Assembly (NCBI GenBank): GCA_022340545.1
Contig: JAJDNV010000159.1
Location: 21,872-85,871, forward strand
DNA: 64,000 nucleotides
Source of the DNA: Acidobacteriota bacterium
GTDB taxonomy: Bacteria; Acidobacteriota; Vicinamibacteria; Fen-336
Direction of reading: 5' to 3'
The position numbers and the translations under genes were made by a program. The notes under the pieces were generated by a model. The model saw only the letters and a program-made list of their open reading frames with translations. It ran no database searches and was not told the DNA's origin. Shown here in pieces: positions 11,935-42,590 of the stretch. How positions within the stretch are numbered: the stretch's first letter is position 1; the number at the start of each line of letters is the position of its first letter.

Positions 11935-13239
11935 CTACTTCTTGGCGGCCACTTCCTCCAGCATCGCGGTCGTCACCGACTTCGGCCGCTCGATCGGGTA
12001 GCCGAGAGCGCGGTCCCAGATGATGTTGCACATGACGCCCAGGGCCCGCCCGATTCCGAACAGCACGGTGTAGAAGTCGTACTCCTGCAGGCCGTAGTAC
12101 CACTGGATGACGCCGGACTGGGCGTCGACGTTCGGCCAGGGGTTCTTGGCCTTCCCCTGCTCCTCCAGGATCGGCGGCGTCACCTTGTACAGGATGTCGA
12201 CGTACTTGAAGATCGGGTCGTCGGGGAGGTGCTTCAGGCAGAAGTTGCGCTGCTCCATGTAGCGGGGGTCGGTCTTGCGCAGGACGGCGTGACCGAAGCC
12301 CGGGATGACCTGTCCCGAGTTCAGGGTGTCCCAGACGAACTTCTTCATCTCCTCTTCGCTCGGGACCTTCCCGCCCATCTGATCCATCACGCCCTGGATC
12401 CAGCGGAGAACCTCCTGGTTGGCGAGCCCGTGCAGAGGCCCGGCCAGGCCGTTGATCATCGCGGAGGCCGCGTAGTAGGGGTCGGAGAGCGCGCTGGCCA
12501 CGAGGTGGCCGGTGTGGGCGCTGACGTTGCCGCTCTCGTGGTCGCTGTGGAGGAGGAAGTACAGGCGGGCGACGTCGTCGTAGGGCTTGTCGATGCCCAT
12601 CATGTGGGCGAAGTTGCCACCCATGTCCAGGGTGAAGTCCGGGGCGATCGGCGTGTCGGCCCGGTATTTCATCCGGAAGATGTAGGCCCCGAGAGTGGGC
12701 AGCCGGGCCAGCAGATTCATCGCGTCTTCGTAGGTGGGGTCCCAGAGGTCCATCTTGGAGAGACCCTCGTTGTAGCGCTTCACGAAGACGGAGTCCCGCT
12801 GCATGCACAGGATCCCCGCCGAGAACATGGTCATCGGGTGGGTGTCGCGGGGCATGGCCCGGAGAACGTCGAAGACGTACTGGGGCACCCGCGAGCGGGT
12901 CTTGAACTCCTCGGCGACCGCCTCCGTGTCTTTCTTGGTCGGGATGTCGCCGGTCAGCAGCAGGTAGAGGAAACCCTCCACGTAGGGCATCTCACCGCCC
13001 GGCACCTTCGGCAGCTTCTCGAGCGTCTCGGGGATGGTGTACCCCCGGAAGCGAATGCCCTCGTTGGGATCCAGGTAGGAGATATCCGTGACGAGGCACT
13101 TCACCCCTCTCGCCCCACCGATGGCCTGGGCGATCGTCACGTCTCCGACCTTGACGTCACCGTGCTTCTTCAGCAGGGCGGTGGTGCGCGGGCGCCAGGC
13201 CTCGATCTTCTCCCGCAGCGTCTCCTTCAGCTTCGACAT
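11935..13239 (-). CDS. gltA: citrate synthase
   Basis: Full-length. GFGHAVLRKTDPRY and HSDHESGNVSAHTGHLVASALSDPY are citrate synthase signatures. Confidence 0.9.
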   Translation of the reverse strand: MSKLKETLREKIEAWRPRTTALLKKHGDVKVGDVTIAQAIGGARGVKCLVTDISYLDPNEGIRFRGYTIPETLEKLPKVPGGEMPYVEGFLYLLLTGDIPTKKDTEAVAEEFKTRSRVPQYVFDVLRAMPRDTHPMTMFSAGILCMQRDSVFVKRYNEGLSKMDLWDPTYEDAMNLLARLPTLGAYIFRMKYRADTPIAPDFTLDMGGNFAHMMGIDKPYDDVARLYFLLHSDHESGNVSAHTGHLVASALSDPYYAASAMINGLAGPLHGLANQEVLRWIQGVMDQMGGKVPSEEEMKKFVWDTLNSGQVIPGFGHAVLRKTDPRYMEQRNFCLKHLPDDPIFKYVDILYKVTPPILEEQGKAKNPWPNVDAQSGVIQWYYGLQEYDFYTVLFGIGRALGVMCNIIWDRALGYPIERPKSVTTAMLEEVAAKK

Positions 13240-13489
13240 GGATTCCTCCTAGACGGAATGATGCAATCGCCCCAGAAGGACTGGGGTTCCCCCGTGCCGC
13301 AGGTTCTCAAACAACGAGGCTGAGCCTCCAGCTGAGGACACACCGGCGGAAACTATCACACTCGGAACCTAGCACCCCGAGGAACCGCTCGTCCATGATC
13401 CCGAGGTTTCACCGGGCCTTCCCGGCGCCCCGGGGCCACGACGGGTGGGCACCGCGGGAGGTCCGGGCGGAGCCGATCACCCCGAGGGC

Positions 13490-15937
13490 TCAGACGATGA
13501 CCGCCGTGGCGGTGCTCCCCCCGGAGCGCCGCACCTCCAGGCGGGCGGGGAGACGCTCGGCCAGCTCCCGAACGTGGGTGACGACGCCGACCACCCGCTG
13601 GCCGCCATGGAGGGCGTCCAGCGCGGAAACGACGGTGTCGAGCGTCTCGCCGTCGAGCGTTCCGAACCCCTCGTCCAGGAACAAGCTCTCGAGGGCCTCC
13701 GCCGCCCGGCCGCCGGCCGAGAGCCGGGCCAGGCTCTCGGCGAGGGCCAGGGCGAGGGCGAGGGAGGCCAGAAAGGTCTCCCCCCCGGACAGTGTCCGGA
13801 CCGAGCGGATACCGTCGGCGTTCCAGTGATCGACGACGAAGAAGTCCTGCTCGGCCCGCGCCCCCGCACCCGCGGTCTCGCCCGAGCCCAGGCGCAGCGC
13901 ATAGCGTCCCTGGGAGAGCAGTGCCAGGTGGTGGGAGCCGTCTGCGGCGAGCCGCCGCAACGCCTCCTCCTGGATCCAGGCCACGAGCTCGTTGGCCCGC
14001 AGGTGATCGGACAGCGTCTTGAGAAGCGCGGCCTCGGCGTCGAGCCGGGTCTTCTTCTCCCGCAGCTCGGTGGCCCGGACGATCTTCCTTCCGAGACGCT
14101 CGACCTCGCCGCGGAGAGCTCCCACGCGCGTGGCGAGCGCGTTCGACTCTTGTTGACGCGCGGAGCGGCGCGCCTCGAGCGTGTCGACCTCGTCTCCACC
14201 TGCGTCGCGCCGCTCGAGAGGGTCCCAGCCCTCACGTGTGGCGAGATCGCCGAGCGCGGGCTCGATCTGCTCCACGATCGCGGACGCCGCCTCGCGCCGG
14301 GCGGAGATCTCCTCGAGCCGGGCGATCGCACCGTCCCTCCGTGCGGCGGCCGCGGCAAGCTCGGCCTGCAGCCCGGAGAGCTTCTCCTCGATTGTCCTCC
14401 GCTTTGCCTCGAGATCGATCTTTGCCCGTTGCGCGGCGTCGAGCGTCTTCAGCTCGGACTGGATCTCCTCCAGGAGGCGGGGCGCGTCGGCCACGTCGTC
14501 GCCTCCGAACCCTGCCGCGCGAAGATCGTTTGCCAGCTCGGCGCCCGAGGACGTCAGCTGCCCCGCCTGCTCCTCGACCTGAGCGAGCTCACGTCTCAGG
14601 CCCGCCGCCCCGGCCTGGGCCTTCTGGAGGTCCAGCCGGGCCGTCTCGGCGGCGGCGGTGGCGGCTCGCGCGGCCTTCTGCGCGCGGGTGACGCGCGCCT
14701 CAGCCTGGTCGAGCGCGAGGGCGTCGGCCTTCGGCACCGCCGGCACCGTCTGCTCGCACACCGGGCACGGCTCCCCGACCGTCAGCTCACGGCGCAGGGC
14801 CGCCGCCGCGTGCCGCCGGTGGGTCTCCTCCCGCTCCTCCCGTGCCGCCTGGAGCTCAGCCTCGGCCTCGCGCTGAGCGCCTTCGGCGGCCGGGACCGCG
14901 GATTCGGCCGCGACGAGGGCCGTCTGCCCCGCTTCGAGAAACGACTGCTTCTCGGCCCGCGCTTCGGCGAGCCTCTCGAGCTGTGCTCGGAGGGAGGCCA
15001 GCTGCTCTGCCTGCGGCTTCGCGGTCAGGAGGGTCCGCTGCCACTCGAGGTCGAGGCCCAGCCGGTCGATCTGCCCGGCCCGGGCCTCCAGCTCGCCCTC
15101 GAGCGCGGCGCGCGTCTCGTCGCCGCGAGCCAGCATGTCCTCGGCCGCCTTGCGCTTCTCCTCTTCCTGCGCGGCGTCTCGTGCCTGCCCGTCGATCTCC
15201 TGGCGGGCGGTGCGGAGCTTCCGGGCCAGCGTGAGGCCCTCGCCCAGGGCGGCCTGGGTCTTCTCGAGGGCGGCGACCTCCTCCTCGGCCTTCGCGAGCT
15301 CACCGCCTCGCTCCTCGAGCGTCTCGCGGGTGGCGTCCGCGAAGTCCCGCTCGAGCTGCTCCGCGATGAAGGCCGTCTCCTTCCGGGCGTCGGCGTTCTT
15401 CTGGTTGGCCAGCCTCTGGACGGCGTCGTAGATGCCCAGGTTGAGGAGCGACACCAGGATCTTCCGCCGCTCCTTCGGCTCGCCCTTGAGGAACTCGTCG
15501 AACTGCCCCTGCGGGAGGACCACCGCACGCGTGAACCCGTCGTAGTCGAGGCCGAGGATCTGCTCGATGTGAGACCGGATCTCCCGGGCCTTGTCCGCGA
15601 GCGGCTGCGCCTCGGCACCCTCCACGCGCTCGAGACGCTGCTTCGACGCCCCGGCCGGGCGCGCGGTGCGGGCCACCCGGTAGCGCAGCCTCGAGCGCCC
15701 CACCTCGAACTCCAGGAGGACGTTGAGACGCTCGGCACCGTGGCTGATGAGCTGCTTGTAGTCGTCACCGACCCGCGGCACCTGGCCGTAGAGCGCGAAC
15801 ACCAGCGCGTCGATGAGGGAGGACTTCCCGGACCCCGTCGGCCCGGTGATGGCGAACAGGTCGAGGCCGGAGAAGTCGATCGATTGCTTCTCCCGAAACG
15901 AGGTGAAGCCCTCGACCTCGAGCCGGATCGGTCTCAC
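13490..15937 (-). CDS. sbcC: SbcC/Rad50-like exonuclease ATPase subunit
   Basis: N-terminal Walker A (AITGPTGSGKSSLIDALVFALYG), long coiled-coil, C-terminal signature/Walker B (LSGGETFLASLALALA...LFLDEGFGTLD). Confidence 0.85.
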   Translation of the reverse strand: MRPIRLEVEGFTSFREKQSIDFSGLDLFAITGPTGSGKSSLIDALVFALYGQVPRVGDDYKQLISHGAERLNVLLEFEVGRSRLRYRVARTARPAGASKQRLERVEGAEAQPLADKAREIRSHIEQILGLDYDGFTRAVVLPQGQFDEFLKGEPKERRKILVSLLNLGIYDAVQRLANQKNADARKETAFIAEQLERDFADATRETLEERGGELAKAEEEVAALEKTQAALGEGLTLARKLRTARQEIDGQARDAAQEEEKRKAAEDMLARGDETRAALEGELEARAGQIDRLGLDLEWQRTLLTAKPQAEQLASLRAQLERLAEARAEKQSFLEAGQTALVAAESAVPAAEGAQREAEAELQAAREEREETHRRHAAAALRRELTVGEPCPVCEQTVPAVPKADALALDQAEARVTRAQKAARAATAAAETARLDLQKAQAGAAGLRRELAQVEEQAGQLTSSGAELANDLRAAGFGGDDVADAPRLLEEIQSELKTLDAAQRAKIDLEAKRRTIEEKLSGLQAELAAAAARRDGAIARLEEISARREAASAIVEQIEPALGDLATREGWDPLERRDAGGDEVDTLEARRSARQQESNALATRVGALRGEVERLGRKIVRATELREKKTRLDAEAALLKTLSDHLRANELVAWIQEEALRRLAADGSHHLALLSQGRYALRLGSGETAGAGARAEQDFFVVDHWNADGIRSVRTLSGGETFLASLALALALAESLARLSAGGRAAEALESLFLDEGFGTLDGETLDTVVSALDALHGGQRVVGVVTHVRELAERLPARLEVRRSGGSTATAVIV

Positions 15938-17094
15938 CGCTGCGCCTCGTCGTAGAGAGTCTGGAAGAGCTTCTTCAGCTCATCCGAAGGCGGCGCGCCG
16001 TTCTTCCGCGAGTAGTACCGCGTGAACAGCTCCGCCGGCTCGAGCTGCGTGCGGGGAGACTCCTCCTCGCTGGGCTCGGCACCCTCGTCTCGAGGATGAT
16101 CGACGGTCACGTCGAGGGCGTTCGGAAGAAGCTCCTTCACCTGCTCCGCGAGCCCCGGCACCGGTGCCTCCGTCTTCACCGTGACCCGAAGGAAGGCGTC
16201 GTCCACCTCCCCGGCCATGTGCCGCAGCTCTTCGAGCGTCCCTTCCACGTCCCGAAGCCGCCGGCCCGACGTGACCGGCACCTCTTCGACCGAGGCAACC
16301 TGGGCCGGCTTCGCCTCGACGATGACCACGCGCTTCTCCTGCTCCTTTTCCCCAAAGTCGAGCTCGATGAGGGAGCCCGAGTACAGCGTCCTCGATGGCG
16401 CCATCACCTCTTGTGGGCGGTGCAGATGGCCGAGGCCGATGTACTGCAGGGAGGACGGGAGCTGCTGCGGGTTCAGTCCGTATATGTCGCCCAGGTGGAG
16501 CTTGCGCTCCCCGGTGCCGAACAGCGAGCCCGCCACGAGCAGGTGGCCGATGAGGAGATTGACGGTCGACGGTGGAAGGTCCTTCACGAGCTCGGCGAGG
16601 ATCTGTTCGAGGCGCTCCGAGTAGGTCTCGTACCACGTGTGCTCGGGATCCATCACCGCGCAGGCGTCCCCGACCTTGCGCTCGGGTACGAACGGCAGCA
16701 CGGCCACCCGTGCCTCTTCGGCGCCGTCCCGCGACGCCAGCGAGACGATCCCACCCTGCGCCGGCGGCCGGACCTCGGCCCGGACATGGATCCGAAGGCC
16801 TTCGAGGAGCGACGCCAGCGCGCCCAGCTTCTTGGGGTGGTCGTGGTTTCCGGCGATCAGGACGGCGGCGATCCCCTCGGGCAGCAGTCGCGCCAGGAAG
16901 TCGTAGACGAGCTTCTCGGCCTCGGGCGGAGGCGCCGGCGAGTCGAAGATGTCGCCAGCGACGAGGACTGCGTCCACCCGGCGGTCGACGGCGATGTCGG
17001 CCACCTCCCGGAGCGCGGCCGCGTACTCGTCCATCCGGGAGCGACCCCGCAGGGGCTTGCCCACGTGCCAGTCGGCGGTGTGAAGGAGGCGCAC
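15934..17094 (-). CDS. sbcD: SbcD/Mre11-like nuclease subunit
   Basis: MRLLHTADWHVGK...DAVLVAGDIFD...IAGNHDH calcineurin-like phosphoesterase motifs. 4-bp overlap with sbcC. Confidence 0.85.
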   Translation of the reverse strand: MRLLHTADWHVGKPLRGRSRMDEYAAALREVADIAVDRRVDAVLVAGDIFDSPAPPPEAEKLVYDFLARLLPEGIAAVLIAGNHDHPKKLGALASLLEGLRIHVRAEVRPPAQGGIVSLASRDGAEEARVAVLPFVPERKVGDACAVMDPEHTWYETYSERLEQILAELVKDLPPSTVNLLIGHLLVAGSLFGTGERKLHLGDIYGLNPQQLPSSLQYIGLGHLHRPQEVMAPSRTLYSGSLIELDFGEKEQEKRVVIVEAKPAQVASVEEVPVTSGRRLRDVEGTLEELRHMAGEVDDAFLRVTVKTEAPVPGLAEQVKELLPNALDVTVDHPRDEGAEPSEEESPRTQLEPAELFTRYYSRKNGAPPSDELKKLFQTLYDEAQR

Positions 17095-17097
17095 CGC

Positions 17098-18792
17098 TCA
17101 GTCGTCCCTGAAGCCCTTGAAGACGTCGGCCTCGGCGACCGTCGCCGCGACCTCGGTCTTGCGCGTGGCCCACGCCGGGAACGGGAAGCGCACGAGGAGA
17201 GGCGTCGGGATCTCGGGCTGCTGAACGATCATCGTCCCCGGCTTGAGGATGCCCGCCCGTCCCCGGGCGGCGGCGGGGAGGAAGCCATACTCCGAGCGTT
17301 CCGCCTCCGCGGTGTCGAGCCGTCCCACCACCCGGAGCGCGGCGTTGGCGACGATGCGCCCCTCGACCTCGCTTGCGGTCTGCTGCGCTCCGACGAGGAC
17401 GACGCCCAGGCTGCGGCCGCGCTCGGAGATGTCGAGGAGCACCTCCTTGATGGGCCCCGAGCCCTCGCGCGGGGCGTACTTGTTGAGCTCGTCGAGGACG
17501 ACGAAGACGAGCGGCCGCGCCGTTCCCAGCGACTCCTTCTGCTCGAACATCCGCTTGAGGACGGCACCCACCACGAACCTCTTGGCCCGGTCGTGGAGCG
17601 CGTGGATGTCGACGACGCTCACCTGGGTTCGCCTCCACTCCAGGGCGTGCTCCTCGCGCCGGCCGACGTCCGCTCCCCGGATGAGGTGACCCACGTGCCG
17701 AGCCGCCGCGCGCAGCCGCCGCTCGAAGGCCGCCACCGTGCCCGGGGCGGCCGACCGGGCCCACAGCTCGGCCAGCGATCGTTCTTCCGCATCCCGATCA
17801 CGGTCGGTCAGCGTCTCGACGAGGGTGTCGAACGTCTCGATCCTCCGTCCCTCGACCTCGATCCACGGGTCCTTCGGACCCCCGCTCGCCTTCGCCTCCG
17901 CCACCAGCCTGGCCTCGATCAGGTCGACGACGAAGCTGAGCTGGCTGGAGGCATCCTCCGCCTCGGCGAAGAGGAACCTGAGGAGCCGCTCCGTGACGAC
18001 CTCTCGAATCGTCCAGAAGAACGAGGCGACGCCCTTCTGGCGGCTTCCGGTCGCGGGCAAGCGCTCCCGTGAGCCCGGACGCACCGGGGCCAGGACCTGC
18101 ACCGAGTCGAAGGCCTCGGCCGGGAGCCCGAGCCTCCCGTAGTCCTCGCGCGCCGGCGCCGTGAGACGCGCGTTGGGCTGGTCGAGGAAGAGCAGGTCCT
18201 CTCCCTTCACGTTGAAGACGATCGCATGGGTGTTCGGGGCCTCGCCCCCGAGGGCCCCCGAGCGGAAGAGGCTGTGGAGGAGAAACGTGGCGTAGCTGGT
18301 CTTCGTCGCCACCCCCGAGATGCCCGAGATGTTGACGTGGGCCCCGCGTGAGCCGTCGAGGAAGTCGAGGTTGGCGAAGACGGGCTCGCCGTCGCGGGAG
18401 AGGCCGATCGGCAGCCGTCTCTCCATACCATCAAAGAAGAGCGCCTGGTCCCGCCGCTCCCCCACCGCGCGCCGGACCGGCTGCCCCGGCCGCGGCGGGA
18501 CGAAGATCTCGGGCTCGACCCGCGTGACCCGCACATGGGCGGCGTGGGCCACGGTCGCGGGGAGAATGCCCTTCTCCACGAGGAAGACGTCGGAGTCGAA
18601 CGTGGCCCCCTCGTGCCGGGCCCGCACCAGGTCCACGACACCGTAGAGCCGCACCTCGGTCCCGTCCGGGAGAGGCGTGGTCACCTCGACGACGTCGTCG
18701 AGCTGGAGGTACTGGAGGTCCTCGACCCCGACCCAGAACTCGAGCGGCAGCGCGTCGAGGGTACCGAGAACACGACCGACGGGCGGGCTCAC
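17098..18792 (-). CDS. herA: HerA-like DNA helicase/translocase ATPase
   Basis: N-terminal HAS-barrel-like region (GRVLGTLDALPLEFWV...). The C-terminal block VFVVLDELNKYAP...ISERGRSLGVVLVGAQQTASEV...ALRVVGRL resembles HerA DEAH/arginine-finger motifs. Deviant Walker A (GISGVATKTS). Confidence 0.7.
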   Translation of the reverse strand: MSPPVGRVLGTLDALPLEFWVGVEDLQYLQLDDVVEVTTPLPDGTEVRLYGVVDLVRARHEGATFDSDVFLVEKGILPATVAHAAHVRVTRVEPEIFVPPRPGQPVRRAVGERRDQALFFDGMERRLPIGLSRDGEPVFANLDFLDGSRGAHVNISGISGVATKTSYATFLLHSLFRSGALGGEAPNTHAIVFNVKGEDLLFLDQPNARLTAPAREDYGRLGLPAEAFDSVQVLAPVRPGSRERLPATGSRQKGVASFFWTIREVVTERLLRFLFAEAEDASSQLSFVVDLIEARLVAEAKASGGPKDPWIEVEGRRIETFDTLVETLTDRDRDAEERSLAELWARSAAPGTVAAFERRLRAAARHVGHLIRGADVGRREEHALEWRRTQVSVVDIHALHDRAKRFVVGAVLKRMFEQKESLGTARPLVFVVLDELNKYAPREGSGPIKEVLLDISERGRSLGVVLVGAQQTASEVEGRIVANAALRVVGRLDTAEAERSEYGFLPAAARGRAGILKPGTMIVQQPEIPTPLLVRFPFPAWATRKTEVAATVAEADVFKGFRDD

Positions 18793-19763
18793 GCCGCCGC
18801 CTCCTCGTGGAGCCGCGTCTCGATGGCCCGACGGATCACCGCGTGGTCGCCGAGGAGGTGCTTGAGGCGTGCCTCGAGCGCCCCGATGGGGACGAGGTTT
18901 TGAGGGGCCCGCGGGTCACGGGCGGAATCGGAGGCGAAGCGGGGGAGCTCGCGCGCCGAGAGGTCGGCCAGATCCCGCGCCGCGTCCAGGCCGGGTCCCG
19001 ACGGCGCCTCGAGGCGCACGATCCCGGTGAGGGCGGAGTCGATGGGCCGGCCCTCGCCGATCCTCAGGTACCAGGAGTAGCGGGGCTCGCGCGCGGCCTC
19101 GACGAGGAAGAGGGGTGTGCGCTCGCCGACCTCGAGTCGCGGCAACAGAACGGAGGCGGCCGGGTCGAGGTAGGTGCGGAGCAGGCGCTTGACGAAGCCG
19201 ACGACCGGACCCCGAGCGGCCGCGGTCACGTAGGTCAAGGGGCCGTCGAGGAACACCACGGTCACCTCCGCGGCCAGGCGCTCGGCCAGGCCGGCCTCGC
19301 TGGCCCGCATGGCCTTCTGCAGGCCCTCGATCGGGGCCGCCGGTGTGTTCTCGGGCTCGGCCACCGGGTCGAAGACGACACCGATCTCACCGTCGCCGAT
19401 CGGGGCCTCGAAGGGAGCGAGGCGCAGGCCGGCACCGGTGACGGCGACCCGCCCGATCGCCTCGTGGGCGACGCGGGCCGTCTCCTCGATCACGGTCGCG
19501 CCCACCCCGTAGGATCCGAGCAGACCAAAGACCGTCCGGCTTCCGTCCTCGATCAGCAGACGGTGCTCGATGCGCCGCACCCCGTCGACGAAGGCGATGG
19601 CCCGCGAAGAGGGGACCCCGGTCGGGTGCACCGCGGCCCAGACAGACGACTCGACCCGGATGTCCACCCGGGCCGGCTCCTGCCCCTCGTCTCCGATCTG
19701 GATCGCGCCCTCGTACTCCGCCGCCCAGGGGTCGAGCCGGATCCGGGGCTCCTTCTCTCGCAT
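18789..19763 (-). CDS. nurA: NurA-like nuclease (candidate partner of HerA)
   Basis: 324 aa from the ATG at 19763 (MREKEPRI...). Its stop overlaps the herA start by 4 bp. Size and the N-terminal AIAFVDGV (IDGS-like) fit the NurA domain. The upstream ORF-track extension is junk. Confidence 0.55.
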   Translation of the reverse strand: MREKEPRIRLDPWAAEYEGAIQIGDEGQEPARVDIRVESSVWAAVHPTGVPSSRAIAFVDGVRRIEHRLLIEDGSRTVFGLLGSYGVGATVIEETARVAHEAIGRVAVTGAGLRLAPFEAPIGDGEIGVVFDPVAEPENTPAAPIEGLQKAMRASEAGLAERLAAEVTVVFLDGPLTYVTAAARGPVVGFVKRLLRTYLDPAASVLLPRLEVGERTPLFLVEAAREPRYSWYLRIGEGRPIDSALTGIVRLEAPSGPGLDAARDLADLSARELPRFASDSARDPRAPQNLVPIGALEARLKHLLGDHAVIRRAIETRLHEEAAA

Positions 19764-19847
19764 GAACGCCAGGAGTCTATCGCCTGGGCCCGCCGCGTCA
19801 GGTCCGCAAACCGGCGAACCCGCCCGGGCTGCTAACATCATCAGCTC

Positions 19848-21050
19848 ATGCCTCGGATGCGGAAACCGCGGTCGCTGGCCGGCGCAGCCCTGGTGGCGGC
19901 GCTCCTGGCGGGGAGCCCCGCCCACGGCGCGTCCCCGCTCGCCGTCGACCCGGCCGACCCGCGTCTCGTGGGACGCCCCGACCTCATGCAGAGGCTGCAG
20001 GGCAGTGCCCACGGGTACTTCAGGTTCATCAACGCCCCCTTCGCGGCCGAGGCCTGCGCCGCGTTCGCCGACATCGTCGACGAGTTCCCGGACGTGAACC
20101 TCCACGGCGACGCCCATTTCGAGCAGTACGCGGTGACGAGCCTCGGCCACGGGCTGACCGACTTCGACGACTGCACCCAGGGCAAGCCGATCATCGACCT
20201 CGTCCGCTTCGGGACGTCGCTCGTCCTCGCCGCCCGTGAGCGCGGCTGGGGCGACGAGGACGCCAGGTTCCTGGACGCGTTTTTCCGTGGCTACCGCGAC
20301 GCCCTCAAGAAGCCGGATCGGACGAAGCCGATGCCGGGGCTCGCCGCCGAGATCCGGGCCGGCTTCAAGTGGGATCGGGCGGCCGCCCTGCGCCAGGCCC
20401 ATGCCCTCATCGACGCCGCTCCTCTGCCCCCGGAGAGCTTCGCGGAGGGCGCGGCGGAGTTCGCCGGCCTCATCCGGTTCGGCCGCGACGACCTCCCCCT
20501 GCACTTCTTCGAGATCAAGCGGGCGGGCGCACTCAAGCTGGGCGTGGGCAGTGCCCTCGACGAGAAGTACCTGATCATCTTCGAGGGGTGGACCCGGGCC
20601 GACGACGACGACCTCATCGTCGAGGCAAAGCAGATCCGCGACCTCTCCGGCAACCCGTGCGTGCGGACGGACGTGGGCGCGTCGCGGATCCTGGACGGCC
20701 AGCGGCTCATCGCCTACGAGCCTTTCCGCTTCAGCGCCGTCGTCCCCCGGGGCGAGAAGTACTTCTGGGTCCACGACTGGACGGACGACTATCAGGAGAT
20801 CTCGATCGCCACGGTGGTCCGCTCGAGGCAGGATATGGAGGAGATCGCCTACGACGCCGGGGTGCAGCTGGGCCGGGCCCACCCGAAACGGGTCGACGGC
20901 GAGCCCGACAAGGAGCGCCAGAAGGCGACGCTGGAGGCGGTGGGCGGAAACGAGGGGCGCATCCGGGGAGTCATCCGGCGGCTGGCCGACAAAACGGAGG
21001 CGGCCTGGCGCGGCTTCACCGAAGCCGCCGGCCGCCTCCCCAACGACTGA
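19848..21050 (+). CDS. DUF2252-family secreted protein
   Basis: Signal peptide. HGDAHFEQY ... DFDD motifs typical of DUF2252. Confidence 0.65.
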   Translation: MPRMRKPRSLAGAALVAALLAGSPAHGASPLAVDPADPRLVGRPDLMQRLQGSAHGYFRFINAPFAAEACAAFADIVDEFPDVNLHGDAHFEQYAVTSLGHGLTDFDDCTQGKPIIDLVRFGTSLVLAARERGWGDEDARFLDAFFRGYRDALKKPDRTKPMPGLAAEIRAGFKWDRAAALRQAHALIDAAPLPPESFAEGAAEFAGLIRFGRDDLPLHFFEIKRAGALKLGVGSALDEKYLIIFEGWTRADDDDLIVEAKQIRDLSGNPCVRTDVGASRILDGQRLIAYEPFRFSAVVPRGEKYFWVHDWTDDYQEISIATVVRSRQDMEEIAYDAGVQLGRAHPKRVDGEPDKERQKATLEAVGGNEGRIRGVIRRLADKTEAAWRGFTEAAGRLPND

Positions 21051-23833: not shown

Positions 23834-23947
23834 CCGTCACGCCGCGCATCCTCTGGCCGGGAGAGGGTGAAGCCCGGCCGACACCATGCAGATGAGGGAA
23901 CCGGCGGTGTCGCCGGCCCGTTCTCCGTCTCAGAGCGGAAGACAGGC

Positions 23948-25390
23948 ATGGCCACCGCGGTGTTACCATCCGACGCGATGATCGGGCAGACCTTCAAGCA
24001 CTACGAGGTCGAAGCGGAGCTGGGAAAGGGCGGCATGGGCGTCGTGTACCGCGCCCGCGACACCCAGCTCGGCCGCCCGGTCGCCCTCAAGGTCCTGACC
24101 CCGGAGTTCACCCGGGACGAGGACCGCAAGAAGCGGTTCCTGCAGGAGGCCAGGGCCGCGAGCGCCGTCAACCACCCGGCGATTGCCCCGGTCTACGAGG
24201 TGGGCGAAGGCCCGGAGGGCCTCTTCATCGCGATGGAGCTGGTCGAGGGCCGCACCGTCAAGGCCCTCATCCAGGCCCGCGAGCTGGATCTCCTCGGGGG
24301 CATCGAGGTGGCGCTACAGGTGGCGGGCGGGCTCCAGAAAGCCCACGAGGCGGGCATCGTCCACCGCGACATCAAGCCCGAGAACGTGGTCGTCACCCCC
24401 GACGGGCACGCGAAGATCCTCGACTTCGGCCTGGCCAAGCTCCTCGAGCCCACCGCGCCCGCGACTGCCCGCTCCGCCGACGAGATCTCGCACATGGAGA
24501 CGCTGGCCAAGACGCAGGCCGGCTTCGTGCTGGGCACCCTCCGATACATGAGCCCCGAGCAGGCCCGCGGCCAGGCCATCGACTACCGGAGCGACATCTT
24601 CTCGCTTGGCGTCGTGCTCTACGAGATGGTGACGGGCCAGCTGCCCTTCTCGGGCTCGACTCCGCTGGACACCCTGCACGCCATCGCCTACGAGGAGACT
24701 CGCCCGGTCACCGCGCTGCGACCGAACATCCCTGCGTCCCTCCAGCGCGTCGTCACCCGCTGCCTCCGAAAGCGGGCGGCCGATCGCTATCCCGACGCCC
24801 GCGAGCTGATCACGGACCTGAAGGCGGTGCAGCGCGAGGTGGAGAGCGGGATCTCGAGCAAGGTGCCGCTGGGGGTGAGGCTGCAGGAGCAGTGGACGTC
24901 GCTCCGGCACCGTACGCTGGGCGAGTGGCTCCTGCCGGCGGGTGTGGGCGTAGTCCTTCTCGCGGTCGTGCTCGCGATGCTCTTCGGCCCGGAAACGGAG
25001 GGGCTCCCGGGCAGCCTGATCTTCTTCGGGATCGTCGGGCTCTTCGTGTGGCGCCGCTTCCGCAACCGCCGTATCCGCCTGGCCCGCCGGGCGGTGAAGA
25101 AGATGAGCCGGATGGAGGAGGTCCGCCTGATCGCCCTGGACGGGATGCGCCTCACGGTGCTGGCCGACCGGGCCCAGGCGCGAACCTACGTGCGCGCGAA
25201 CGCGATCGTGGACGCGGTGAATTCGAGCATGTTCTTCGGGGATCCGTTTACGGTGGTGGTCCGCGACGACGTCTCCGACGAAGAGGCCAAGGCGTTGCTG
25301 ACCGGACCGGGCATCCTCTACGTGCGCGAGAACGAGCCCCTCCCTCCCGCGCCCCCCGCCCCGAACACCACCTCGGTCGAGCAGGGCTGA
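23948..25390 (+). CDS. Ser/Thr protein kinase with TM segments and a C-terminal extracytoplasmic domain
   Basis: GKGGMGVVYRA...ALK, HRDIKPEN, DFG, SPEQ Hanks motifs. ATG at 23948. Confidence 0.8.
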   Translation: MATAVLPSDAMIGQTFKHYEVEAELGKGGMGVVYRARDTQLGRPVALKVLTPEFTRDEDRKKRFLQEARAASAVNHPAIAPVYEVGEGPEGLFIAMELVEGRTVKALIQARELDLLGGIEVALQVAGGLQKAHEAGIVHRDIKPENVVVTPDGHAKILDFGLAKLLEPTAPATARSADEISHMETLAKTQAGFVLGTLRYMSPEQARGQAIDYRSDIFSLGVVLYEMVTGQLPFSGSTPLDTLHAIAYEETRPVTALRPNIPASLQRVVTRCLRKRAADRYPDARELITDLKAVQREVESGISSKVPLGVRLQEQWTSLRHRTLGEWLLPAGVGVVLLAVVLAMLFGPETEGLPGSLIFFGIVGLFVWRRFRNRRIRLARRAVKKMSRMEEVRLIALDGMRLTVLADRAQARTYVRANAIVDAVNSSMFFGDPFTVVVRDDVSDEEAKALLTGPGILYVRENEPLPPAPPAPNTTSVEQG

Positions 25391-27167: not shown

Positions 27168-27833
27168 GTGGACGGAGAGGACATCGTCAACGGCCTCCTG
27201 AGGGGCGCCTTCGGCGGCCGCCGGAAGAGATCGCGCGGCGCGAGGCGCGCCTTCGGGAGGCGCGGGTCGCTCGTCAACGCGACGACGCTGCTGGCGGCGG
27301 CGGGCGTCGCCTGGGGCCTCTACGAGACCTGGCAGGGCCAGCGATCCTCCGGGACCCCGACCGGACCGACGCCTCGACCCGGCACGCCGCCCCCTCCCCT
27401 GCCCGGCGCCACCGCCCCGCCTCCCCTGCCCCCCACAGCCGAAGCAGGACGGCTGCCCGAGCCCGTCCTTCGCGTGGTGCGCCTCCTGATCTCCGCCGCG
27501 GGCGCGGACGGGCGAATAGGACCCGCGGAGCGTGAGGCCATCCTGGCCGAGGCCCGCGCCACCGGGGCGGAGGACGCGGTGGCGGCCGAGCTGGAGTCGC
27601 CGCGGCCGCTCCCGGAGATCGTGGGCGGCGTCACCGACCCGAAGCTCAAGCGGGACCTGTACACGCTGGCGTTCGGGATCGTCCGCGCGGACGAGACGGT
27701 CACCGGGGGCGAGCGGATCTACCTGGCCCAGCTCGCGCATCACCTGAAGCTCGAGCCCGACGACGTCGCGCGCCTCGAGTCCGAGGCCGCCGCTCGCATC
27801 GACGCCGAGGCGGCGAAGGCGGACGACGCGTGA
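27168..27833 (+). CDS. TerB-like / DUF533-family protein
   Basis: GTG start after [40 protein letters not shown] is the TerB-like C-terminal domain. Pro-rich linker. Confidence 0.6.
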
Positions 27834-27861
27834 GCTGAGCCTCAAAACGGAGGGAGGGAGC

Positions 27862-28881
27862 ATGTCGTCGACGCCACAGTGGTACATGGCCGTGGGTGGC
27901 CAGCAGGTCGGGCCCGTGTCCGAGGAAGACATCACCAACAACATCAAGAACGGCAGCGTCGACGCCGAGACCCTGGTCTTCATCGCGGGGATGGACGGCT
28001 GGACGCCGCTCAAGGCCGTGCCCAAGTTCGCGTCCCTGCTCGGCCCGATCGCTCCGCCGCCGATGCCTGCCTCGGCCCGGCGCTCGGACATCATCGACTA
28101 CAAGATCAAGGGCGAGGATGTTCAGTTCGTCGAGATCGAGCTCGACCCTGGCGAGGCCTGCGTGGCGGAGGCCGGGGCCATGATGTACATGACCGCCGGC
28201 ATCCAGATGGACACGATCTTCGGCGACGGGAGCGGCCGGCAGAAGCCCGGGATCATGGGTGCGCTGCTCGGCGCGGGCAAGCGCGTCCTGACCGGGGAGA
28301 GCCTCTTCATGACCGTCTTCTCTTCGCACGGTCGCGCGAAGGAGAGGGTGGCCTTCGCCGCGCCCTACCCGGGCCGGATCCTCGCCATGGAGCTTCCCGA
28401 GCTGGGGGGCGAGCTCATCTGCCAGAAGGACTCCTTCCTCTGCGCGGCCAAGGGCGTGGCCATCAGCATCGCCTTCCAGAAAAAGATCGGCGTGGGCCTC
28501 TTCGGCGGAGAGGGCTTCATCATGCAGCGTCTCCTGGGCGATGGGCTCTGCTTCGTCCACGCCGGGGGCATGCTCCACGAGCTGCAGCTCGGGGCGGGCG
28601 AGACGCTCCGGGTGGACACCGGCTGCCTCGTCGCGCTCCAGCCCAGTGTCGGCTATGACGTCCAGTTCGTGGGCGGCATCAAGACGGCCTTCTTCGGCGG
28701 GGAGGGGCTGTTCTTCGCCACCCTCACCGGGCCCGGCCGGGTGTGGCTGCAGTCGCTGCCGCTGAGCCGCATGGCGGACCGGATCTACAAGGCCGCGCCC
28801 CAGACCGGAGGCAGCCGCAAGGGCGAGGGCTCCATCCTCGACGTCGTCGGGGGCCTGGGCAACATGATCGACGGCGACTAA
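27862..28881 (+). CDS. AIM24-family (TIGR00266-like) protein with N-terminal DUF4339/GYF-like domain
   Basis: N-terminus [18 protein letters not shown]. The remainder matches the AIM24 pattern (GESLFMTVF...[22 protein letters not shown]). Confidence 0.7.
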
Positions 28882-37014: not shown

Positions 37015-37210
37015 GGACTCTCCCGGGGCGGAGACCCGCACATCCCCCTACCATGGTGCAACGCCGGGAGGCCACTCGCCATTCCCGGCGGGACGACGAC
37101 CCGTGGGGGCGTAGGTGGTGTATGCTGCGGCATCGTTCCAGGTCAGACGTCCGGCGGCCCCCGCGGAGCAGGGGTTTTTCCTCGCCTGCGGGGCCGGGGA
37201 GGCGACGAAG

Positions 37211-39928
37211 ATGAGCCTGAAGTCCGGCCAGCGCCTCGGGCCCTATGAGATCGAGTCCCCACTCGGCGCGGGAGGCATGGGCGAGGTGTACCGCGCCCAG
37301 GACACACGCCTGGGTCGCTCCGTCGCGATCAAGGTGCTCCCGGCCCACCTGGCCGAGCACCCGCAGCGCCGCGAGCGCTTCGAGCGGGAGGCCAAGGCGG
37401 TCGCCGCCCTCAGCCATCCCCACATCTGTGCGCTCTACGACGTGGGCGAGGAGGACGGCGTCTCCTTCCTCGTCATGGAGCACCTCGAGGGCGAGAGCCT
37501 CGCCGAGCGGCTGTCCCGGGGAGCGCTGCGCCTCGACCAGCTCCTGAAGATCGGAGCCGAGGTGGCGGGCGCCCTCGACCGGGCCCATCGGGCCGGCATC
37601 GCTCACCGCGACCTCAAGCCCGGCAACGTCATGCTCACGAAATCCGGGGCCAAGCTGCTGGATTTTGGCCTCGCCAAGAGCGGGCTGGCCGAGCCGGAGC
37701 GGACGGAGTCGAGCGCGCCGACCGAGGCCGCTCCGGGGGTGGCTCCCCAGGATACGAGCGCCCCGACCGAGGCCAAGCCGCCCCTCACCGAGGCGGGAGC
37801 CGTGCTCGGCACCTTCCAGTACATGGCCCCCGAGCAGCTCGAGGGAGAGGAGGCGGACGCACGAGCCGACATCTGGGCCCTCGGCTGCCTGCTCTACGAG
37901 ATGGCCACAGGGAGCCCTCCCTTTGCCGGGAAGAGCCAGGCCAGCCTCATCAGCAGCATCATGCGGGACGTGCCGGTGCCGGTCGGGGAGCGGCAACCCC
38001 TCACCCCGTCCTCGCTCGAGCACGTGATCGCCCGGTGCCTGGAGAAGGACCGCGAGGACCGCTGGCAGTCGGCCCACGACGTCGCGGAGGAGCTGACCTG
38101 GATCCAGCGCGCGGGCGGGCGGGACGCGACACCGTCGGTGGAAGCCGGGAAGACGCCGCGCCGACCGGGGACGAGCCGGATGGCCCTCGCGGCCGCGGCG
38201 GCGGCCGTCGCCGGGGCGGTGCTTGGCTACGCGCTGGGGTGGGGCCGCACGGAGACGACCGGCGCGGCGAGCTGGAGCGCGCAGCAGCTGACTTTCCAGA
38301 AGGGCGTCGAGAATCACCCCGCGCTGTCGCCGGACGGCCGTCAGGTCGCTTACGTGAGCGAGGCCTCCGGCAACGCCGACATCTACCTCCAGCGCGTCGA
38401 CGGGCGCAACGCCATCAACCTGACGAAGGACTCCCCGGCCGCAGACACCGAGCCCGCTTTCTCGCCGGACGGGAGCCAGATCGTGTTCCGCTCCGAGAGG
38501 GGCGGCGGCGGGATCTTCGTGATGGGAGCCACCGGGGAGTCGGTTCGGCGCATCGGCGACCTGGGCTACAACCCCAGCTGGTCCCCCGACGGCCGCCGGG
38601 TGGTGGTCTCTACGGAGAGAGTCGCCGACCCCCTGAGCCGCCAGGCCACCGCCGCCGAGCTATGGACGGTCGACCTCACCTCCGGGGAGACCCGCCGGAT
38701 CTACGCCGGCGACTCCGTCCAGCCGGCGTGGTCACCCGACGGTCGCTGGATCGCCTTCTGGCGGGTGGACGGCAACTCCGGCCAGCGCGACCTCGCCACC
38801 ATCGACGCGGAGGGCACGGGCGAGTCGGCCGCGGTCACGACCGATGTGCCCGTCGACTGGAATCCAGTCTGGTCGCCCGACGGGCGTCACATCTACTTCG
38901 TGAGCGACCGGGCCGGCACCATGAACGTGTGGCGGGTGGCGATCGATCCGGAGACAGGCGGCGCGGACAGCGAGCCGGTGATGGTGGGAACGCCGGCGGA
39001 GGACGTGGCCTGGCTCTCGGTGGCGAGAGAAGGGGGGAACCTCGCGTACGTCTCACGCTCGGCCCTGCACTACCTCCACTCGTTCCCGCTCGACCCGGAG
39101 CGGCTCCGGCCCGCCGGCGAGGCACGGACAGTCCTCGCCGGGGCCCTGCCGATCCGGTACACCCACCCGTCGCCCGACGGGGCCTCGATCGCGCTGACGA
39201 CCGCGGGAAGCCGCGAAGACCTCTACGTTCTGCAGAGCGACGGGGGCGAGTTCCGGCAGCTCACCGACGACCCCTTCCGGGATCGCGGCCCCCAGTGGTC
39301 GCCCGACGGCTCCGAGATCGCCTTCTATTCCAACCGCTCGGGGACGTATCAGGTCTGGAGCATCCGGCCGGACGGCAGCGGTCTGCGGCAGCTGACGGAC
39401 GTCGCCGATGGGGCGTGGTTCCCGTACTGGTCGCCGGATGGGAAGCGGATTGCCTTCCCCACCGGGAGGGGCACCTGTCTCGTCACCGTCGGTGACGCTC
39501 CGGTGTCGACGGCGGAGTGCCTGCCCGACCTGTCGGCGGACCAGTGGTACGAGGTGCGCGACTGGTCGCACGACGGCCGCTGGCTGGTCGGAAACGCGTC
39601 GCTGCGTGCGGGCGCCGTCCGCCCGGACCTCCTGCTCTGGTCCTTCGACGCCGAGGAGTACCAGCCGATCGAGCATCCCGGGTTCGTGGCACGATGGCTC
39701 CCGGACTCGCGGAATCTCGTCGTGATCGGAGACGACGGGCGCCTCACCCTGGTGGACCACACGACGGGCACCGCCCGCGACGTCGGACGCATCGAGAGCA
39801 GCGGCACGGTCGACCGGGAGCAGATGGGCCTGTCCCGCGACGGCCGCACCGTGCTCGCCCAGGCCAAGTCTCTCGAAGCCAACATCTGGGTTCTCTCGCC
39901 GCCAGAAGATTCCGAGTCCGACGACTAG
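37211..39928 (+). CDS. Ser/Thr protein kinase fused to a C-terminal TolB-like PD40 beta-propeller
   Basis: Hanks motifs (GAGGMGEVYRA, HRDLKPGN, DFGLAK, APEQ), a TM segment, multiple SPDG...PD40 repeats. ATG at 37211 after GGGGAGG. The C-terminal ...SESDD overlaps a hairpin repeat motif. Confidence 0.8.
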   Translation: MSLKSGQRLGPYEIESPLGAGGMGEVYRAQDTRLGRSVAIKVLPAHLAEHPQRRERFEREAKAVAALSHPHICALYDVGEEDGVSFLVMEHLEGESLAERLSRGALRLDQLLKIGAEVAGALDRAHRAGIAHRDLKPGNVMLTKSGAKLLDFGLAKSGLAEPERTESSAPTEAAPGVAPQDTSAPTEAKPPLTEAGAVLGTFQYMAPEQLEGEEADARADIWALGCLLYEMATGSPPFAGKSQASLISSIMRDVPVPVGERQPLTPSSLEHVIARCLEKDREDRWQSAHDVAEELTWIQRAGGRDATPSVEAGKTPRRPGTSRMALAAAAAAVAGAVLGYALGWGRTETTGAASWSAQQLTFQKGVENHPALSPDGRQVAYVSEASGNADIYLQRVDGRNAINLTKDSPAADTEPAFSPDGSQIVFRSERGGGGIFVMGATGESVRRIGDLGYNPSWSPDGRRVVVSTERVADPLSRQATAAELWTVDLTSGETRRIYAGDSVQPAWSPDGRWIAFWRVDGNSGQRDLATIDAEGTGESAAVTTDVPVDWNPVWSPDGRHIYFVSDRAGTMNVWRVAIDPETGGADSEPVMVGTPAEDVAWLSVAREGGNLAYVSRSALHYLHSFPLDPERLRPAGEARTVLAGALPIRYTHPSPDGASIALTTAGSREDLYVLQSDGGEFRQLTDDPFRDRGPQWSPDGSEIAFYSNRSGTYQVWSIRPDGSGLRQLTDVADGAWFPYWSPDGKRIAFPTGRGTCLVTVGDAPVSTAECLPDLSADQWYEVRDWSHDGRWLVGNASLRAGAVRPDLLLWSFDAEEYQPIEHPGFVARWLPDSRNLVVIGDDGRLTLVDHTTGTARDVGRIESSGTVDREQMGLSRDGRTVLAQAKSLEANIWVLSPPEDSESDD

Positions 39929-41711: not shown

Positions 41712-42509
41712 CTAGTTCAGGAACAGGGACGGGAAGGTGGCGTCGAGGACCAGGAGCGAGATGATCATGAAGACGACAGCGGCGGTGGTCGACCGTCCGA
41801 CCCCTTCGGCACCGCCGCGAGTGCGGAAGCCCATGTGTACCGAGATCAGGGGGATGATGAAGCCGAAGACGATGCCCTTGTTGATCGAGTAGAGCAGATC
41901 CCAGCTGTGCCAGTACATGCGGGCACCATACAGAAACGACTGGTAGCCGAGCCCCAGGGAGAGTCGGGCCGCGACCATCCCGGCGAAGATCCCCACAACG
42001 TTGGCAATGGACACGAGGAGGGGCGTCGTGATCGTGCCCGCGATGACCCGGGGAGCAGCGAGGACGGCAATCGGGTCGCGTCCCAGCGAGTGCAGCGCGT
42101 CGATCTGCTCCGATACCTGCATGGTGCCGATCTCGGCGGTGATCCGCGCGCCCACACGGCCGATCAGGACGAAGGAGGTCATCACCGGGCCGAGCTCCAG
42201 GACGACGCTCGAGGCGACCACGCTGCCCAGAACGTAGAGGGGGATCGTGGAGGTGAGCTGGTAGCCGCCCTGCTGGGTGGTGACCACCCCGGAGATGACC
42301 GCGGTAACCAGCACCAGGGGGAGGCTCTGCACGCCCATCTCCCAGAACTGATCGATGATGCTGCGCATCGACACGCGCCCGCGCAGCGTGGCGGCAGCCA
42401 CGCCCCATGAGAGAGACGCCATCTGGCCGGCGTGCTCGGCGACCGCCTCCGCGGTGCGACCGACGCGTGCGAGGGGCCTCAGAAGACCCCGGCGGATGAG
42501 CTTATTCAT
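41712..42509 (-). CDS. mlaE: MlaE ABC transporter permease
   Basis: 265 aa from the ATG at 42509 (MNKLIRRG...). MlaE-like TM pattern. The ORF-track extension to 43538 was rejected. Confidence 0.85.
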   Translation of the reverse strand: MNKLIRRGLLRPLARVGRTAEAVAEHAGQMASLSWGVAAATLRGRVSMRSIIDQFWEMGVQSLPLVLVTAVISGVVTTQQGGYQLTSTIPLYVLGSVVASSVVLELGPVMTSFVLIGRVGARITAEIGTMQVSEQIDALHSLGRDPIAVLAAPRVIAGTITTPLLVSIANVVGIFAGMVAARLSLGLGYQSFLYGARMYWHSWDLLYSINKGIVFGFIIPLISVHMGFRTRGGAEGVGRSTTAAVVFMIISLLVLDATFPSLFLN

Positions 42510-42590
42510 GGAACCAAGGGCAGGCGTAGGACCTGCGGCACAAACGCTACATTCTACGCCAGGCGGTGCGGTGCGGTAGAATCGCTCGTC

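Follow-up and report, generated by a model that had tools for sequence, protein, structure and literature searches.

In archaea such as Sulfolobus and Pyrococcus, four genes form a co-directional cluster in the order herA-mre11-rad50-nurA. The archaeal genes are co-transcribed, and Mre11 binds HerA (PMC2288612). Bacterial NurA-HerA has so far been studied only in Deinococcus and Thermus, where the pair is unlinked from SbcCD, the bacterial Mre11-Rad50, and a 2026 paper still treats the bacterial herA-nurA operon as confined to Deinococcus-Thermus and brings up an antiviral function (PMC12977600). One bacterial locus with all four genes has been published, the hepA (herA) locus of Oceanithermus profundus, which Blesa et al. 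(2017) read as an archaeal-like architecture for double-strand break repair, in contrast to the unlinked genes of Thermus and Deinococcus (PMC5448004). Here, we analyzed a nurA-herA-sbcD-sbcC cluster in a stretch of 64,000 nucleotides from a soil Acidobacteriota bacterium (contig JAJDNV010000159.1, positions 21,872 to 85,871; the whole stretch is called the window below) and found that this four-gene set is a common, conserved bacterial module and no archaeal oddity. The type of system and one bacterial four-gene example (O. profundus) were already known, and the breadth of the linkage has received little mention in print; no description of that breadth was found in the literature searched, where some key older papers fell outside the coverage.

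The proteins of the Deinococcus radiodurans pair (DR_0836/DR_0837; PDB 7F6D and 7WRW/7WRX) are orthologous to those of the window. Yang et al. (2023) established a structural and biochemical mechanism for D. radiodurans NurA-HerA (drNurA-HerA) and called its in vivo role controversial (PMC9960219). The solved bacterial HerA combines a HAS-barrel with a RecA-like ATPase and has a helical bundle inserted, and bacterial NurA dimerizes through an N-terminal beta strand, carries a pin motif and makes ionic rather than hydrophobic contacts with HerA; identity between archaeal and bacterial NurA-HerA is below 20% (PMC9960219). The window HerA aligns with drHerA from end to end with the same Walker A and Walker B motifs, the window NurA has equivalents of W8, D53, K201, and R309 as well as the N-terminal pin region, and nurA lies immediately upstream of herA in both organisms. 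However, several drHerA insertions are absent from the window HerA (564 amino acids versus 618 in the PDB chain), and the Deinococcus nurA-herA pair is not linked to sbcCD (PMC5448004, PMC4663267). The O. profundus locus resembles that of the window in having a bacterial-type herA beside nurA, followed by sbcD and sbcC, but it belongs to Deinococcota rather than Acidobacteriota and, being known from a synteny figure, was compared by description only (PMC5448004).

With the archaeal operon the window shares the same four functional classes in a co-directional cluster, whereas its gene order (nurA-herA-sbcD-sbcC) differs and its proteins are of the bacterial type. Escherichia coli SbcCD has the same family and motif set, with sbcD before sbcC and overlapping stop and start codons; the window SbcC is shorter (815 amino acids, compared with about 1048 in E. 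coli) and is part of a four-gene module. The antiphage HerA systems (Sir2-HerA and DUF4297-HerA; PDB 8XAU, 8WIV, 9C1M, and others) likewise combine a hexameric ATPase of the HerA fold with a nuclease or other effector. Their similarity to the window HerA is weak and lies in the C-terminal half (E values of 0.09 to 0.3 with the single sequence and 6e-8 at best with a profile), the effector in the window is NurA, and the context is no island.

The nurA-herA-sbcD-sbcC locus

The list of open reading frames (ORFs) and their translations agreed with the initial annotation in placing four adjacent genes on the minus strand, as follows.

18789-19763, minus strand: nurA, 324 amino acids, bacterial-type NurA nuclease (RNase H-like 5'-3' exo/endonuclease, HerA partner), assigned by homology
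17098-18792, minus strand: herA, 564 amino acids, bacterial-type HerA hexameric double-stranded DNA translocase/ATPase, assigned by homology
15934-17094, minus strand: sbcD, 386 amino acids, bacterial Mre11 nuclease, assigned by models and motifs
13490-15937, minus strand: sbcC, 815 amino acids, bacterial Rad50 ATPase whose coiled coil is relatively short, assigned by models and motifs

The tight coupling described earlier (gaps or overlaps of 3 to 4 bp) was evident when the junctions were read from the sequence: nurA and herA overlap by 4 bp (GTGA), a 3-bp gap separates herA from sbcD (TGA-gcg-GTG), and sbcD and sbcC again overlap by 4 bp (GTGA). Through these GTGA overlaps, translation of herA is probably coupled to that of nurA, and translation of sbcC to that of sbcD. 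Because of the gene overlaps, all four genes probably form one transcription unit served by a promoter within the 84 bp that separate nurA from the divergent gene upstream. All four products have strong homologues, which places the observation far beyond chance.

The third-position guanine-plus-cytosine (GC) content of herA, sbcD, and sbcC was 0.88 to 0.89, which is typical for real genes in a window of about 70% GC, and the base composition was flat across the operon and matched the flanks. The nurA gene was missed by the third-position GC filter because the mechanical ORF that contains it extends to 20882 and thereby into the divergent DUF2252 gene (19848-21050, plus strand), which fills the stretch upstream of nurA. 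We placed the nurA start at the ATG at 19763 on the basis of this divergent gene, the spacing to a conserved RLDPW motif, which lies 8 codons downstream of that ATG and 3 to 9 codons from the nearest start at most loci in relatives, and the alignment with drNurA, which begins at the same ATG. Longer forms of NurA (the ORF to 20882 or starts at the ATGs 19841 and 19838) were rejected, since the divergent gene lies upstream, the RLDPW spacing fits the shorter form, and the N terminus of drNurA is functionally critical.

Identities and catalytic motifs of the four proteins

Matches to PDB entry 7F6D, curated models and sequence motifs bore out the proposed identities as NurA, HerA with a HAS-barrel, SbcD and SbcC. 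The window HerA is a clear orthologue of drHerA: a search of the PDB returned chain 7F6D_B with an E value of 2.3e-158 and 531 bits (query residues 4-550 to chain residues 14-603), and a profile of the HerA family scored 720 bits. The profile also reached archaeal HerA (4D2I; E value, 1e-3) and the HerA subunits of defense complexes. Neither the single sequence nor the family profile matched any FtsK, VirB4 or TraG structure in the PDB and, apart from one spurious low-score match, only HerA proteins were returned; an FtsK/TraG/VirB4 identity, which the initial annotation had considered as the alternative, was thus ruled out.

In the HerA motifs, the initial annotation had seen a deviant Walker A sequence that put the ATPase activity in doubt. 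The sequence in question, GISGVATKTS (residues 157-166, with K164/T165), is letter for letter that of drHerA. The Walker B motif is LDELN at residues 433-437 (D434/E435) and the acidic GED residue is D199, so that K164/T165, D434/E435, and D199 correspond to K175/T176, D487/E488, and D220 of drHerA. Across 27 diverse family members the Walker A consensus was GISGVATKTSYA, and G160, A162, K164, T165, D434, and E435 were invariant; all three motifs, GED with D199 included, showed no or almost no variation in these members. drHerA binds ADP and hydrolyzes ATP; its K175 pairs with the beta-phosphate of ADP, T176 coordinates Mg2+, and mutants at K175 or at D487/E488 are impaired in ATPase activity and resection (PMC9960219). 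GISGVATKTS is therefore a signature of the HerA clade and not a defect, since drHerA, an active ATPase, has the very same motif and the family does not vary in it, and the proposal of a deviant, possibly inactive Walker A motif was dropped. By analogy with drHerA, the window HerA would form a hexamer with DNA-stimulated ATPase/translocase activity.

NurA matched drNurA (7F6D_H) with an E value of 6.9e-28 over residues 5-319 in a phmmer search of the PDB, and Thermotoga TM1739 (1ZUP) with an E value of 2.5e-5; with a profile of 29 homologues these values improved to 1.5e-58 and 5.8e-23, respectively. The sequence and profile searches of the PDB reached bacterial NurA structures only and no archaeal ones. 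Residues W13, D60, K192, and R285 were invariant in the 29 homologues and align with W8, D53, K201, and R309 of drNurA. Mutation of D53, K201, or R309 abolishes the nuclease activity of drNurA, while mutation of W8, which sits near the N-terminal pin, reduces resection (PMC9960219).

In the Pfam searches suggested by the initial annotation, NurA was a marginal miss (PF09376, 19.5 bits versus a gathering score of 21; E value, 7.4e-4; model positions 75-245), and HerA matched no Pfam family at an E value of 0.1 or better, yet it is the drHerA orthologue by PDB search. None of the 120 HerA homologues listed had a precomputed Pfam domain, and their source names were "ATP-binding protein," "hypothetical protein," or, at JGI, "DNA helicase HerA-like ATPase." For NurA, the linked genes in relatives had no or only a weak Pfam match on record. 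The archaeal HerA equivalogs of NCBIfam also scored far below their cutoffs (NF040819, 14 bits versus 970; NF040937, 11.5 bits versus 800). We read these results to mean that the Pfam HerA/DUF87 and NCBIfam HerA models do not cover this bacterial HerA clade and that the missing Pfam match is no evidence against a HerA fold of the window protein. For annotation, this means that members of the clade go unrecognized, or nearly so, with the Pfam models for HerA/DUF87 and NurA.

SbcD passed the TIGR00619 sbcd model (179.6 bits; cutoff, 77.65) and scored 196 bits with sbcd_Bac, compared with 39 to 66 bits for the archaeal Mre11 models. It has the Pfam domains Metallophos and SbcD_C and a full series of phosphoesterase motifs (HTADWH at residue 5, GDIFD at 47, GNHD at 82, IGH at 182, and GHLH at 222). 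SbcC matched the Pfam families AAA_23, SMC_N, and SbcC_Walker_B above their gathering scores and carries Walker A (GPTGSGKS, 32), Q-loop (LPQG, 141), zinc hook (CPVC, 391), signature (LSGGE, 716), Walker B (LDEGFG, 754), and H-loop (VTH, 786) motifs. It scored at most 91 bits with archaeal Rad50 models and 323.5 bits with TIGR00618 sbcc, which is below the cutoff of 478.5 bits because the match is interrupted and covers two parts of the head on either side of a shorter coiled coil. Of the 70 intact linked SbcC homologues (median length, 824 amino acids), 67 carried a zinc hook, CP[V/L/I]C, in mid-protein. The motifs of the four window proteins predict that each of them is active.

Conservation of the four-gene linkage

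To survey the linkage, a HerA alignment was used to scan one genome per species, which identified at least 596 relatives, and the best 80 loci were analyzed with the four window proteins; 52 of these had enough flanking sequence to be informative. In 50 of the 52 loci all four genes were clustered and co-directional, in two gene orders and with labels from several phyla, which is where the initial annotation, in stating that sbcCD usually lies apart from NurA-HerA pairs in bacteria, was wrong for this clade; Deinococcus and Thermus are the exception. The order herA-sbcD-sbcC-nurA occurred at 40 loci, the window's order nurA-herA-sbcD-sbcC at 10, and 2 loci were incomplete (L002 and L028). The more frequent order was found in many Acidimicrobiia metagenome-assembled genomes (MAGs), in MAGs labeled Saprospiraceae and Azotimanducaceae, and in the cultured Micromonosporaceae Micromonospora taraxaci DSM 45885, Actinoplanes italicus DSM 43146, and Pseudosporangium ferrugineum DSM 45348. 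The window's order was found in Dehalococcoidia, Chloroflexia, "Ca. Palauibacter," "Ca. Sysuimicrobium," and some Actinomycetota and, with shorter flanks, in "Ca. Sulfotelmatobacter," Kofleriaceae and gammaproteobacterial MAGs. The taxonomic labels of the MAGs may be imperfect, whereas those of the isolates are secure.

Conservation in relatives, which the initial annotation had named as a test, was also found at close range: among metagenome contigs with 80 to 89% HerA identity, 4 of 4 close relatives had nurA-herA-sbcD-sbcC, with a divergent DUF2252 gene upstream in 3 and citrate synthase downstream in 1. The cluster was retained in distant representatives at 42% and 35% HerA identity. In total, the HerA family comprised 513 clusters at 50% identity (E value of 1e-30 or lower), spread over many bacterial lineages. 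In neighbor-joining trees of HerA, SbcD, and NurA, the herA-sbcD-sbcC-nurA group formed one clade in each, and the pairwise distances of the three proteins were correlated (r = 0.92 to 0.95). This correlation fits a module inherited as a unit, with a contribution from the shared species phylogeny. For its clade, the window locus is unexceptional.

No conserved fifth component was recognized, because the extra DNA between herA and sbcD in some genomes encodes unrelated genes (DsbA/thioredoxin, DAO oxidoreductase, GNAT, MerR, transposase, and TMEM175). At one locus with 42% HerA identity (L084, 13598-14776), a gene for a RecF-like SMC_N/AAA_23 ATPase of 392 amino acids directly follows sbcC; it was absent from the other loci. 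The best genome match (L001, CAXMOH010000433.1, a 5.6-kb contig of a MAG labeled Hyphomicrobium sp.) had 88% HerA, 78% SbcD, and 65% SbcC identity. This contig, binned as an alphaproteobacterium, is probably misbinned, because all other close relatives are Acidobacteriota. In a "Ca. Marinacidobacterales" MAG (L028, 12900-13800), the SbcC head matches (query residues 1-161 and 716-811) lay about 100 bp apart in different frames, and no NurA match was found at this locus; either the module is decayed or the assembly contains errors.

On plasmids the HerA family was rare (6 of 72,556 plasmid records), and it was essentially absent from phages. The 452-kb linear plasmid of Streptomyces sp. BB1-1-1 (NZ_CP134205.1; L091, 413754-429367) carries herA, sbcD, a gene annotated as an "SMC family ATPase" and a hypothetical gene in the position of nurA, next to TIGR02680/TIGR02678/DUF2397 genes, which we take to be Wadjet-like, and a gene for an ImmA/IrrE metallopeptidase. 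This was the sole defense-like neighborhood seen. The conjugative plasmid AP018315.1 of Sphaerospermopsis kisseleviana (L092, 44976-51976) carries, in the window's order, a hypothetical gene, a second hypothetical gene (herA), sbcD, and sbcC. Thus, the module reaches Cyanobacteriota and can travel on mobile replicons.

Proposed function and alternative explanations

The four genes combine intact catalytic motifs and tight coupling with an arrangement conserved across many bacterial genomes. We consider it likely that this chromosomal operon of a Vicinamibacteria-like Acidobacteriota bacterium encodes a complete bacterial-type set for DNA end processing, in which SbcCD cleans the ends and HerA6-NurA2 resects them. 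The following mechanism is modeled on drNurA-HerA biochemistry (PMC9960219) and on the archaeal system (PMC2288612, PMC3326311). SbcCD would recognize a double-strand end, a hairpin or a blocked end and, by ATP-driven closure of the heads and a clip by the SbcD nuclease, leave a clean end. The HerA hexamer, with the NurA dimer capping its HAS-barrel face, would then use ATP to thread the duplex through its central pore toward NurA, where the N-terminal pin region may separate the strands. During translocation, NurA would degrade mainly the 5' strand, leaving a 3' single-stranded tail for RecA-dependent recombination.

Several points weigh against this proposal. Our survey of the best 80 of at least 596 genomes was biased toward relatives of the window HerA, and three distant representatives (33 to 39% HerA identity) had herA without linked sbcCD. 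The spacer between herA and sbcD is a variable joint, 3 bp in the window and 29 to 485 bp in relatives, and in one close relative (L096, 8688-9235) it holds a PemK-toxin/RHH-antitoxin pair on the opposite strand; the two halves of the module are therefore separable. In an Acidobacteriota MAG with a HerA 82% identical to that of the window (CAVRVE010000012.1; L002, 7700-16000), nurA-herA is kept while sbcD and sbcC are absent at the locus. Additionally, deletion of nurA or herA in D. radiodurans or Thermus thermophilus modestly changes or even improves damage resistance, so that the in vivo role of bacterial NurA-HerA is disputed (PMC9960219). Cheng et al. (2015) stated that a connection between bacterial SbcCD and NurA-HerA had yet to be uncovered (PMC4663267), and the 2026 study of archaeal HerA-NurA found that both strands are cleaved and questioned a role in resection (PMC12977600). 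On the upstream side, the MAG without sbcD and sbcC keeps the synteny (kinase, two small genes, DUF2252, nurA, and herA); it also lacks citrate synthase and the histidine kinase and has a BamB-like gene after herA, and both its nurA and its DUF2252 gene are split over two frames in the alignments, possibly through long-read sequencing errors.

Some of these observations would fit two halves that are neighbors without cooperating, with SbcCD processing hairpins or palindromes at forks and NurA-HerA acting in RecJ modulation, in proliferation, or in FtsK-like DNA pumping. drHerA does interact with RecJ (PMC4663267), nurA-herA lies apart from sbcCD in Deinococcus and Thermus (PMC5448004), and the absence of sbcDC from one locus and the unrelated herA-sbcD inserts tolerated in several genomes point the same way. 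However, the linkage is kept in two gene orders, under several phylum labels and down to 35% HerA identity, the divergence of the proteins covaries, the module moves onto plasmids as a four-gene unit, and the homologous archaeal genes are co-transcribed, with Mre11 binding HerA (PMC2288612). Such persistent linkage is hard to explain without a joint function, and we regard independent neighbors as unlikely. A role in defense, which the initial annotation had kept as an option, would have HerA-NurA and SbcCD destroy linear phage or plasmid DNA, comparable to RecBCD on Chi-less DNA or to Sir2-HerA and DUF4297-HerA. HerA ATPases have been recruited into antiphage systems, to whose HerAs the PDB and PADLOC searches gave weak matches, an antiviral reading of HerA-NurA has been raised (PMC12977600, PMC3326311), and SbcC matched Lamassu LmuB (2.3e-31) and MADS mad3; the Streptomyces and cyanobacterial plasmids described above, the former with its presumed Wadjet-like genes, and the toxin-antitoxin pair within one relative's cluster could be read likewise. 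Yet the PADLOC matches (LmuB at 2.3e-31, mad3, mad8, and HerA at 2.6e-7 over residues 390-495 only) are generic to P-loop and SMC heads, the LmuB match is far weaker than that of SbcC to sbcc (323 bits), and NurA and SbcD had no specific PADLOC match. No Sir2, DUF4297, or LmuA/LmuC partner was identified among the annotated ORFs, and the set makes up none of the PADLOC systems compared (Lamassu, MADS, and HerA-effector systems). The locus is part of a syntenic core chromosome in relatives and not of a variable island, the family is rarely met on plasmids and hardly at all in phages, and its phylogeny is congruent and largely lineage-wise. A defense role finds no support in the context, and we consider it quite improbable.

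Recent horizontal acquisition of an archaeal herA-mre11-rad50-nurA operon would account for the identical gene content, and bacterial herA-nurA genes have been called archaeal transfers (PMC5448004, PMC12977600). The protein-level comparisons spoke otherwise: the archaeal NCBIfam equivalogs scored 11 to 91 bits on the window proteins (cutoffs, 500 to 1000), far from archaeal membership, versus 180 to 323 bits for bacterial sbcd and sbcc, the NurA profile found only bacterial structures, and the HerA profile matched archaeal HerA more weakly (E value, 1e-3) than it did the bacterial defense HerAs. The GC content and third-position GC match the surroundings, and the 513 HerA clusters extend over many bacterial lineages. 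We therefore give this origin hardly any credence. The "archaeal-style" operon of the initial annotation holds for the gene set, which resembles the archaeal cluster, and not for an archaeal origin, as all four proteins are bacterial-type. Overall, what that annotation observed was confirmed and its interpretation was partly supported, with the rarity, the deviant Walker A motif and the archaeal flavor being wrong or overstated.

The reading of the operon as an end-processing set can be extended, tentatively, to a widespread bacterial "resectosome" whose genes are passed on together, with occasional transfer of the whole set, and in which SbcCD physically passes processed ends to HerA6-NurA2. 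If this broader proposal, which we think may well not hold, were true, the nurA-herA pairs of Deinococcus and Thermus would be reduced remnants, and the four-gene linkage, instead of marking out archaea, would be common to the two domains and possibly very old; the most frequent order in bacteria, herA-sbcD-sbcC-nurA (40 of 50 complete flanked clusters), equals the archaeal order. It would also provide bacteria with a route of end resection additional to RecBCD/AddAB/AdnAB and RecJ/RecQ, one that is testable in cultivable Micromonosporaceae. The drHerA-type clade is large, and most genomes sampled carry herA clustered with sbcD, sbcC, and nurA. This linkage is genomic evidence for cooperation between bacterial Mre11-Rad50 and HerA-NurA and, given the survey, such cooperation is testable in cultivable actinomycetes (Micromonospora, Actinoplanes, and Pseudosporangium).

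Putative promoter region, terminator-like hairpin and neighboring genes

Two noncoding features of the operon were examined.

19764-19847, minus strand: divergent intergenic region of 84 bp with a promoter-like element for the operon
13316-13332, minus strand: weak terminator-like hairpin about 160 bp past the sbcC stop, before the citrate synthase gene, from a consensus scan only

In an alignment of the intergenic region from the window and four relatives, CGGACC (19806-19801) and TAGACT (19779-19774) were invariant and the rest of the spacer was poorly conserved. This conservation suggests that the two boxes are a putative promoter. The -10-like TAGACT lies 10 nucleotides before the nurA ATG, so that the mRNA probably starts with no leader or only a very short one; CGGACC lies 21 nucleotides upstream of TAGACT, too distant for a standard -35 element, and a sigma-70 scan found no minus-strand promoter in 19764-19847. 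An SOS box or other operator upstream of nurA was considered and rejected, since the spacer held no conserved palindrome and its conservation was limited to CGGACC and TAGACT. On the plus strand of 19764-19862, the DUF2252 gene has a -10-like TAACAT about 9 to 10 nucleotides before its ATG, inside a partly conserved GTTAGCAG block, and the nurA and the divergent DUF2252 mRNAs may both be leaderless. Aside from the hairpin listed above, the consensus scan found no minus-strand terminator-like site in 13000-20200 and none within the four genes.

The window HerA is identical to a record from an Acidobacteriota MAG, and its nearest named relatives among the homologues listed are Vicinamibacteria. 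One flank of the operon encodes citrate synthase, a histidine kinase, a BamB-like propeller and a cysteine-synthase-like PALP enzyme, and the other encodes DUF2252, DUF937, a histidine phosphatase and Ser/Thr kinases. These housekeeping flanks, the conserved synteny and the scarcity of the family among plasmids and phages gave no support to a defense island or mobile element; the locus lies in a syntenic, housekeeping part of the chromosome, and no mobile or defense genes were identified among the annotated window ORFs. An Rfam scan of the whole window gave no match. The remainder of the window contains genes for transporters, peptidases, ferrochelatase, RsgA, KAS, and similar functions. Unconnected to the operon are an AIM24/GYF protein (27748-28881), a PilZ protein (42411-43586), and two eukaryotic-type Ser/Thr kinases (23867-25390 and 37115-39928), one of which is fused to PD40 beta-propeller repeats.

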